Shown here piece after piece: positions 40,125 to 40,391 of a stretch of DNA of 64,000 bases (positions are counted from its first letter, which is position 1; each line of letters begins with the position of its first letter). The notes under the pieces were generated by a model. The model was given only the letters and a program-made list of their open reading frames with translations, did no database searches and had not been told where the DNA came from. The position numbers and the translations under genes were made by a program. Source of the DNA: Candidatus Babeliales bacterium (lineage in GTDB: Bacteria; Babelota; Babeliae; Babelales; JACPOV01); assembly GCA_050250855.1 (NCBI GenBank), contig JBFWNW010000003.1, forward strand, positions 64,001 through 128,000, read 5' to 3'.

Positions 40125-40391
40125 CTACTTGTCACATAGGTGAGGAAAACAACAGGTCAAAAAGCAAAAAAAACAGCATGCTGCCCTGCGTTTTTCATTC
40201 TGCATCCTTGTATGTGCAGATTCTATCATTTGAGCATTTTGCTTAAGCTGCTCTGTCTTTTGCTCTACAGACTGTAAGTTGTCCGTCTGCTCAATAAAGT
40301 CACGTAAATTCTGATGCTGTTGACCTTTATCCATGCTCTGTAATGATATAAAAGACGACTGCACTAATAAAAAAATAATTATTTTTTTCAC
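40125..40391 (-). CDS. Small secreted protein with synaptobrevin-like coiled coil and Cys-rich tail
   Basis: GTG start with AAGGA; signal peptide; NLRDFIEQTDNLQSVEQKTEQL heptads; CCFFCFLTCCFPHLC. Confidence 0.75.
   Translation of the reverse strand: MKKIIIFLLVQSSFISLQSMDKGQQHQNLRDFIEQTDNLQSVEQKTEQLKQNAQMIESAHTRMQNEKRRAACCFFCFLTCCFPHLCDK

Follow-up and report, generated by a model that had tools for sequence, protein, structure and literature searches.

Bacterial SNAREs and SNARE mimics are already known, as is the concept of the inhibitory SNARE (i-SNARE). In the account given by Neveu et al. (10.1101/810531; PMC9546365), the Legionellales carry bona fide SNAREs of the R-, Qa- and Qbc-types (LseA among them), which are lipid-anchored, and the overwhelming majority of bacterial SNARE matches belong to that order, with lower-scoring ones placed in the supplement (10.1101/810531). 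For chlamydial IncA an inhibitory SNARE role has been proposed (PMC2265411), and in the host SNAREs syntaxin 11 and SNAP-23/25 clusters of S-acylated Cys residues are described as serving as membrane anchor (PMC4049605). We here analyze W88, an open reading frame (ORF) of 88 amino acids located in a 64,000-nucleotide window (C3:64001-128000) of the 1.22-Mb, 95%-complete genome of a Candidatus Babeliales bacterium (G000), in which a Sec-type leader is followed by a stretch resembling the C-terminal half of an R-SNARE motif, then by a basic linker and finally by a Cys-rich tail. The novelty lies in finding such a half-motif together with a Sec-type leader and a Cys-rich tail in this phylum. Dependentiae are widespread and almost uncultured parasites of protists, and to our knowledge hardly anything is known of their effectors apart from ankyrin repeats. 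Among the 20 best-ranked of 300 matches of a full-text literature search, no link was found between SNAREs and Dependentiae, Babela, Chromulinavorax, Vermiphilus, Babeliales or TM6, and the single paper retrieved for SNAREs together with Dependentiae was unrelated.

An initial annotation had read the ORF, without stating its strand, as a secreted miniature mimic of an R-SNARE (synaptobrevin). The ORF is present on the minus strand, starts with GTG and ends with a TAG stop codon at 40125-40127, and the following features belong to it (positions are those of the window):

40125..40391, minus strand: W88, 88 amino acids, with leader, SNARE-like helix, basic linker and Cys-rich tail (ORF listing and sequence)
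40397..40402, minus strand: ribosome-binding site AAGGAA, 5 nucleotides 5′ of the GTG of W88 (direct sequence reading)
40335..40391, minus strand: signal-peptide-like leader, residues 1-19, composed of MKK, IIIFLLV..FISL and SLQS and followed by Met20-Asp21 (sequence and AlphaFold2)
40191..40316, minus strand: heptad helix resembling an R-SNARE, spanning residues 26-67 and roughly layers -2 to +8 (PF00957, own profiles, hhalign, shuffle and reverse controls)
40185..40193, minus strand: basic juxtamembrane linker Lys67-Arg68-Arg69, lying on the 'lkrk' linker columns of R-SNARE profiles (sequence)
40128..40184, minus strand: Cys-rich hydrophobic tail, residues 70-88 (AACCFFCFLTCCFPHLCDK), with 6 Cys (hydropathy, AlphaFold2, block in common with the paralog)

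All of the stretches quoted in the initial annotation could be located, namely NLRDFIEQTDNLQSVEQKTEQLKQNAQMIESAHTRM at residues 28-63, KRR at residues 67-69 and CCFFCFLTCCFPHLC at residues 72-86. Its reading of the leader as signal-peptide-like agrees with the sequence and with a helix predicted by AlphaFold2 at residues 2-15. In this prediction, which was run on the single sequence and has a mean pLDDT (the model's own confidence score) of 75.9, the first helix is followed by a loop (residues 16-22) and by an unbroken helix (residues 23-81) that spans the heptad region and the KRR linker and runs into the tail; confidence is best over residues 51-80, with block means of 93-94 over residues 61-80. 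A Met placed right after the likely signal-peptide cleavage site, as in ...SLQS/MD, ...IVG/MN, ...LTA/MN and ...LCA/MQ, is common (W88 genome; L044-L050, L022, L023, L027 and L030, where L numbers from L022 to L057 designate loci and G numbers the other Babeliales genomes compared). By a crude rule applied to the W88 genome, Met occurs at positions 17-32 in 131 of 334 signal-like ORFs versus 210 of 739 others; the pattern may trace leaders that were added ahead of older start codons, or dual starts.

When W88 was compared with the 24,736 models of Pfam, the top family was Synaptobrevin (PF00957; 20.3 bits, E 4.8e-4), followed by Vps51/Exo84 (E 0.01) and by the SNARE family Sec20 (E 0.044). Residues 26-67 aligned with model positions 20-61 (of 89), 42 on 42 and without gaps, in the register that the initial annotation had proposed. 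It had likewise been right about three details of this alignment. K45, T46 and L49 fall in the KT..L columns of VAMP7/8-type proteins. Gln35 stands in column 29, the column of Arg84 in L022 (a better-scoring Babeliales protein described below) and of the Arg of VAMP8 'laRGenl' in the printed PDB alignment, which we take to be the zero layer of R-SNAREs, so that Arg is replaced there by Gln. The N-terminal half of the motif is absent: a complete SNARE motif has ~53 residues and 16 layers (-7 to +8), and layers -7 to -3 are missing in W88, where the leader ends at about residue 19-20 and leaves no room for them, the PF00957 match starting at model position 20. As expected of an R-SNARE, a basic linker and a putative C-terminal membrane anchor come right after layer +8. 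When the entire genome was searched in six frames, no PF00957 match at E<=10 came up other than W88 (E 7.6e-4, 19.6 bits), and the Q-SNARE families PF05739 and PF12352 gave nothing meaningful in that genome.

Two profiles of our own were then available for comparison. For the first, 1.84 billion representatives were scanned in full by HMMER with L022, which retrieved 134 relatives besides L022 itself, and the phmmer alignment of these 134 was turned into a profile; among the ten of these relatives looked up in clusters, one was named 'vesicle-associated membrane protein 7' and one was a stramenopile record. On this profile W88 scored 14.4 bits (E 0.021) in the same register as with PF00957 and ranked first of 10,582 stop-to-stop frames, the next frame having 6.7 bits. 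Of 5000 plain shuffles of residues 21-69, one reached 14.4 bits, as did 3 of 5000 shuffles that preserved the heptad classes, and the core scored 12.1 bits forward versus 5.1 bits when reversed. For the second profile, A2, P0125 was set aside and the other 133 of the 134 relatives were aligned with MAFFT; against A2, hhalign placed residues 25-66 in the PF00957 register with a probability of 59.4% (E 9.1e-5). For comparison, Neveu et al. accepted a Legionellales protein as a bona fide SNARE when it matched a type-specific hidden Markov model (HMM) at E<=1e-4 over at least 40 residues; with the Pfam model in place of those HMMs, the match of W88 covers 42 residues at E 4.8e-4. Judged from these profile comparisons, the SNARE similarity of W88 appears modestly above chance and reproducible, and it is sub-threshold.

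The initial annotation had also proposed that a Cys-rich, lipidated tail takes the place of a transmembrane helix. The Cys-rich tail is there, and at least 6 Cys in the last 20 residues is a property of only 4 of the 5,921 ORFs of at least 40 amino acids in the genome. The second part of the claim has to be weakened, because residues 70-86 form a hydrophobic stretch (mean Kyte-Doolittle hydropathy 1.88 over 17 residues, 1.29 over 19) within the continuous predicted helix, which makes the tail a short, borderline membrane anchor and not clearly a substitute for a transmembrane helix. This stretch and the 14-residue helix of the leader are the only hydrophobic segments of W88, and from composition and hydropathy the tail is a possible short tail anchor and/or site of S-acylation. 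Likeness to the CYSTM tail-anchored Cys-rich module, presumably PF12734, was not borne out, no such match being found for W88 or its paralog among Pfam matches at E<=10. A CaaX box was considered and rejected, since W88 ends in H-L-C-D-K with Cys at position -3, not -4. NCBIfam at E<=1 contained no match of W88 to a C-terminal sorting tag (sortase, exosortase, rhombosortase) or to a precursor of a ribosomally made, modified peptide (RiPP), and the basic residues of W88 stand before the hydrophobic stretch, not after it as in the tripartite tail of sorting tags. Four other ORFs of the genome combine a signal-like N-terminus with a Cys-rich C-terminus, having up to 8 Cys within the last 20 residues (C4:38071-38796 and C4:39481-40038 on the plus strand, C3:34158-34409 and C1:317284-317436 on the minus strand); tails rich in Cys may recur as a module among the exported proteins of this organism.

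W88 is part of a wider picture in the order. Across 261 Babeliales genomes, PF00957 gave 90 matches at E<=0.1, of which 73 lie at 0.01-0.1, 9 at 0.001-0.01 and 8 at <=0.001. Scaling from the 73, one would expect ~7 matches at 0.001-0.01, which fits the 9 found, and ~0.8 at E<=1e-3 (0.6 at E 7.6e-4); with 8 observed, most of the top eight matches, of which W88 is the eighth, are not due to chance. The matched control with the Q-SNARE family PF05739 over the same genomes gave 6 matches at E<=0.01, one at E<=1e-3 and none over the cut-off, and the lone match at E<=1e-3 was discarded as spurious, being a 42-amino-acid frame with two internal stops. Beside W88, the top matches make up a coherent set:

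L022 (G133), 1462-1863, minus strand: 133 amino acids, signal peptide, full motif with 'LERG', basic linker, tail GCLACCFPMKKK
L023 (G229), 1366-1800, minus strand: signal peptide, His at the zero layer, Gly/Ala-rich hydrophobic tail; 25 bits with Pfam, 37.5 with our own profile
L024 (G235), 1207-1665, plus strand: signal peptide, 'IERGDKLEVLV', tail ending in CGLL (CaaX form); 24 bits both with Pfam and with our own profile
L025 (G112): lipobox, C-terminal 'LENRGKKL' motif, no tail; not replicated by A2
L026, 1399-1962, minus strand: signal peptide, C-terminal half of the R-SNARE motif only, Cys-containing hydrophobic segment
L027, 1381-1677, plus strand: signal peptide, C-terminal half of the R-SNARE motif only, Cys-containing hydrophobic segment
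L030, 1444-2145, plus strand: signal peptide, C-terminal half-motif followed by a hydrophobic stretch, Cys-bearing stretch elsewhere; may hold two units

A signal peptide or lipobox is found in six of the seven other top matches (L028 has none), the ERG/NRG zero layer is kept in L022, L024 and L025, and in four of those six (L022, L024, L026 and L027) the motif is directly followed by a basic linker and a Cys-bearing tail. When A2 was run over the 261 genomes, the matches in G133, G229, G235, G103, G177 and G167 were recovered and the one in G112 was not. With 45.1 bits in Pfam, 108 bits on our own profile and a match to VAMP8 in the PDB (E 4.8e-6), L022 is by sequence a bona fide VAMP7/8-type SNARE. 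Next to L022 and L024 lie genes of bacterial appearance, for HAD hydrolase, DAO and photolyase, and G229 and G112 are single-contig genomes. The coherence of this set argues that exported R-SNARE-derived proteins exist in the Babeliales, half-motif forms included, and we hold this with much higher confidence than any statement about the function of W88 itself. W88 has in common with the set the leader, the R-SNARE-like motif, the basic linker and the Cys-bearing tail, and a half-motif alone is found also in L026, L027 and L030. L022 (45-108 bits), L023 (25-37) and L024 (24-26) score far above W88, and L022 and L024 keep the Arg. In a pairwise BLASTP comparison of W88 and L022, the alignment was gapped (E 3e-4), and the CCFP that the two have in common comprises only four residues and is possibly coincidental. 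A further exported coiled coil, L057 (G104:C24, a 222-amino-acid frame at ~9086-9208), surfaced as a weak match of W88 (E 0.016); it has '...YQQEKRRA' followed by a transmembrane stretch, a linker-anchor layout like that of W88.

The reading we prefer, to which we assign a probability of about 0.5, is that W88 has a SNARE-derived, host-directed function as an inhibitory half-SNARE. On this reading a member of the protist-parasitic Babeliales (Dependentiae/TM6) would export the small protein by Sec and cleave off its leader, and W88 would then form one long amphipathic helix carrying a diverged, N-terminally truncated R-SNARE motif of the VAMP7/8 type with Gln at the zero layer. W88 would leave the bacterium by the route thought to operate in this phylum, via Sec plus outer-membrane vesicles, or by an unknown one; for the cultured relative Chromulinavorax, 44% of coding sequences are reported to have signal peptides, Sec has been proposed as the export route, and vesicles are described as budding in the food vacuole (PMC6561590). 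The tail could then fix W88 to a host membrane, by inserting as a short anchor, after S-acylation by host enzymes, or in both ways, and the half-motif may fill the membrane-proximal part of the R-helix groove in acceptor complexes of host endolysosomal Q-SNAREs. Since W88 without layers -7 to -3 presumably cannot nucleate N-terminal zippering, it is proposed to act as an inhibitory SNARE that holds the complex in a non-fusogenic state, so that the bacterial compartment would be kept from fusing with lysosomes or other vesicles, or its fusion would be diverted. We only infer export to the host, lipidation, binding of host SNAREs and inhibition. Yeast exocytic complexes with four Gln are reported to be functional, and Gln at the zero layer therefore need not prevent assembly. 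Soluble C-terminal fragments of synaptobrevin can either accelerate or block fusion, from which it follows that the direction of any effect of W88 is not predictable from its sequence. A wider version, which we regard as tentative and on balance somewhat doubtful, is that mini-SNAREs exported by Sec and anchored by a lipid or a tail have repeatedly been made in the Babeliales from host R-SNAREs of the VAMP7/8 type, with W88, its half R-helix fused to a tail that could be acylated at several sites, as an extreme, natural 'Vc peptide' inhibiting endolysosomal fusion; such proteins would, with the same reserve, be the first class of SNARE effectors without a type III or type IV system and the first in this phylum.

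W88 has a tandem neighbour which is clearly related to it:

40410..40643, minus strand: tandem paralog of W88, 77 amino acids, ATG start and AGGAG ribosome-binding site, directly upstream of W88

Only 18 nucleotides separate the stop codon of the paralog from the start of W88. The two proteins are 39% identical by BLASTP (E 1e-16), and the likeness is confined to both ends, the middle of the paralog being unrelated to that of W88, Pro-containing and not alignable. The paralog matched no Pfam family at E<=10, scored -2.5 and -1.7 bits on our own R-SNARE profiles, and gave nothing on any SNARE profile. In the blocks common to the two genes, FISLQSMD at the end of the leader and CFLTCCFPHLCD in the tail (20 codons in total), there are 8 synonymous and no non-synonymous differences, 3 of them in FISLQSMD and 5 in the 12-residue tail block, and two Leu codons are altered at more than one base. 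This pattern requires translation in the frame of W88, and purifying selection acts on its leader end and tail. One could suppose that W88, as an orphan that is short and AT-rich, is not a gene at all, an idea that is hardly credible given these codon differences, the ribosome-binding sites on both ORFs, the operon-like 18-nucleotide spacing and the fact that a public gene caller also predicted W88, as a 79-amino-acid product from the second GTG. Contigs from the metagenome runs X1 and X2 have identical W88 DNA with zero variation, and a scan for sigma-70 promoters and terminators gave background levels only.

Homologs of W88 were sought widely. Only W88 itself and the paralog were found in 5.8 billion protein clusters, no ortholog was found in the 260 other genomes among the 261 Babeliales genomes searched (best foreign E 0.0017), and a pattern search of 185,579 species genomes found none either. 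The pair is also absent from G001, the only other species of the genus. By these comparisons and the codon pattern, W88 is a real gene and a species-specific accessory one. It lies in a slot with conserved borders:

39481..39966, minus strand: conserved exported protein of 161 amino acids, downstream border of the slot; homologous ORFs at the same place in 7 of 7 relatives fetched; no Pfam family
40693..41247, minus strand: ssb, upstream border of the slot; present in 10 of 10 family genomes

By coordinates, ssb stands beside a gene for a 444-amino-acid protein (38150-39484) in 7 of 9 relatives, G003 and G009 being the two in which they are on different contigs, and synteny extends over the 444-amino-acid gene, the 161-amino-acid gene and ssb in the 7 family genomes from which the locus was fetched. 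The slot between the borders (39966-40693; loci L044-L050 in the relatives) varies. In G002 it is empty, in the congener G001 an unrelated exported protein of 256 amino acids is encoded there, G004 has two ankyrin proteins, both exported, and each of G005-G008 has from one to several others that are likewise exported. Lineage-specific exported proteins thus collect in the slot that W88 and its paralog occupy. Farther out in the window, a 174-amino-acid ORF on the minus strand (41324-41848) has a hydrophobic N-terminal part and a coiled coil faintly like tubulin cofactor A (E 0.0044), and a 257-amino-acid exported ankyrin protein on the plus strand (36733-37506) has a Q/L-rich coiled coil right after the signal peptide.

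A considerable number of observations weigh against a SNARE-derived function of W88. Its score of 20.3 bits stays below the PF00957 gathering cut-off of 26.4 bits, and at its E-value one sub-threshold match to some Pfam family is expected by chance in every ~2000 proteins. The zero-layer Arg-Gly pair, which is invariant in the 133 R-SNARE relatives and makes up the sole invariant columns of the A2 alignment, is Gln35-Thr36 in W88; the far better-scoring L023 also lacks the Arg, having His at this layer, so that the requirement for Arg is not absolute. Scored with A2, W88 is again the top frame of its genome, at 10.5 bits and E 0.27 per genome with the next frame at 10.1 bits; the score is reached by 11 of 5000 plain and 28 of 5000 heptad-preserving shuffles, and the alignment covers residues 44-81 only, from KT (layer +3) onward and with the tail on the columns of the transmembrane domain. 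Over the 261 genomes at E<=0.1, A2 did not report W88, whereas it recovered six of the seven other top matches. A profile of those seven gave W88 3.6 bits, a comparison of low power, given that left-out members reach only 4-15 bits themselves. W88 is the weakest-scoring of the Babeliales SNARE-like set and has, as far as sequence comparison can tell, no specific relationship to the others. Searching PDB sequences with phmmer returned no SNARE and two unrelated matches (E 1.6 and 6.8), and the ESM Atlas contained no usable feature match and, as structure neighbours, unrelated helical proteins. The paralog keeps leader and tail without a SNARE-like middle, so that the conserved and selected parts are the ends and not the motif. 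In addition, a Sec-exported W88 would still need a route to the cytosolic face of host membranes. The identification as a synaptobrevin therefore stands only in part: PF00957 is the best of all Pfam models and the register is that of the initial annotation, but the cut-off is not reached and the order-wide A2 search missed W88.

Several of these points would be accounted for if W88 were a generic, small exported or membrane-anchored coiled coil (an envelope protein or an effector) whose R-SNARE likeness had arisen by chance from heptads and a Q/E/K-rich composition. The sub-threshold scores, the lost Arg-Gly, the silence of the order-wide A2 search, the 28 heptad-preserving shuffles, the paralog without motif and the helical neighbours in the ESM Atlas all suit such a protein, as do the other weak Pfam matches, which are to assorted coiled coils (Vps51/Exo84, TBCA, DUF families). 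A chance resemblance is harder to reconcile with a single register returned by four profile methods (PF00957, our two HMMs and hhalign), with W88 being the top frame of its genome on both own profiles, and with a motif that directly precedes a basic linker and a hydrophobic tail as expected of a SNARE. The excess of matches in the Babeliales is, moreover, specific to the R-SNARE family, there being none for the Q-SNARE family. We consider a generic coiled coil rather unlikely, while giving it serious weight.

Another possibility is that leader and Cys-rich tail constitute a cassette that exports and membrane-anchors (or serves for metal binding or cross-linking of) a middle part free to vary, the SNARE-likeness being incidental to one copy; in that case both copies would be proteins of the surface or of vesicle membranes, with middles that evolve under diversifying pressure. 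It is in line with this that conservation between W88 and the paralog is limited to the leader and tail blocks, through synonymous changes only, that the middles are not alignable, and that three of the other ORFs with signal peptide and Cys-rich C-terminus (C4:38071-38796, C4:39481-40038, C3:34158-34409) exist in the genome. Such a cassette would not explain why nothing else in the genome matches R-SNAREs as well as the middle of W88 does, no known family of C-terminal sorting tags was matched in NCBIfam, and the tail was seen nowhere else in 260 genomes: a search of the 261 with the 25-amino-acid tail alone gave a best foreign E of 0.014, and the 12 inspected of 37 foreign matches looked like spurious frames. 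A cassette of this kind seems improbable to us. The conserved N-terminal leader and Cys-rich C-terminus of two tandem small ORFs might also recall precursors of a RiPP or bacteriocin, the more so as the adjoining 161-amino-acid ORF (39481-39966, minus strand) has a faint NCBIfam match to a SPASM maturase (E 9e-4, 18.8 bits versus a cut-off of 175). That match was judged to be due to chance, since the protein lacks the Cys pattern of SPASM and its N-terminus is signal-like, and the neighbour as a SPASM-domain peptide maturase was discarded. As the leader of W88 looks Sec-type, the 161-amino-acid neighbour (without Pfam family) is kept in relatives that do not have the small ORFs, no radical-SAM or other maturase lies within the interval, and NCBIfam holds no RiPP family match, a peptide precursor has very little to recommend it.

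If W88 and its better-scoring relatives do engage host SNAREs, they would offer a concrete and testable handle on how Babeliales escape from or remodel the phagosome. Bacterial use of SNAREs would then extend from the Legionellales, with type IV translocation and CAAX boxes, to a second phylum with another export route and another anchor, and the proteins could serve as naturally occurring minimal SNARE fragments in studies of how zippering next to the membrane is blocked.

Compared with eukaryotic VAMP7, VAMP8/endobrevin and Nyv1 (PF00957), W88 has the same heptad register, the Asn of a nearly invariant column (N28), KT..L at layers +3/+4, a small residue or Ala at +5 and a hydrophobic one at +6, and, as in these proteins, a basic linker directly followed by a hydrophobic C-terminal helix. 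It differs from them in having ~11 of 16 layers, Gln-Thr for the zero-layer Arg-Gly and a score below the cut-off, in carrying a Sec-type leader in place of the longin or N-terminal region, and in its 17-residue tail with 6 Cys. Like the Legionellales SNAREs as described in the sources cited at the outset, W88 is a SNARE-type candidate of an intracellular bacterium of protists; those proteins have no normal transmembrane domain, bear a C-terminal lipid anchor and are thought to interfere with host vesicle fusion, which is again the kind of role considered for W88. They are reported, in contrast, to have full motifs above the HMM thresholds, CAAX boxes and translocation by the Dot/Icm type IV system, whereas W88 has a Sec-type leader, ends in LCDK without a CAAX box, carries half a motif with Gln at the zero layer, and comes from another phylum. 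With IncA and other Inc proteins of Chlamydia, W88 would have in common that it is a bacterial membrane-anchored protein with a SNARE-like heptad motif, for which binding of host SNAREs and a block of fusion have been proposed. Inc proteins are characterized by a bilobed hydrophobic domain (~40-60 residues) and type III secretion and are described as analogues without profile-level SNARE similarity, while W88 is much smaller, is predicted to be tail-anchored and has no bilobed hydrophobic domain. In syntaxin 11 and SNAP-23/25, a Cys-rich region at the C-terminus or in the linker replaces the transmembrane domain, as may be the case in W88, and is described as being needed for membrane association; these are full-length host Q-SNAREs, and the tail of W88 is hydrophobic enough to insert alone, its acylation being only putative. 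A parallel to what is proposed for W88 is offered by laboratory C-terminal fragments of synaptobrevin (Vc peptides and the delta-N complex), where it is the half of the R-helix next to the membrane that binds to the acceptor complex and governs zippering. Vc peptides are synthetic and soluble and can also accelerate fusion, whereas W88 is natural.

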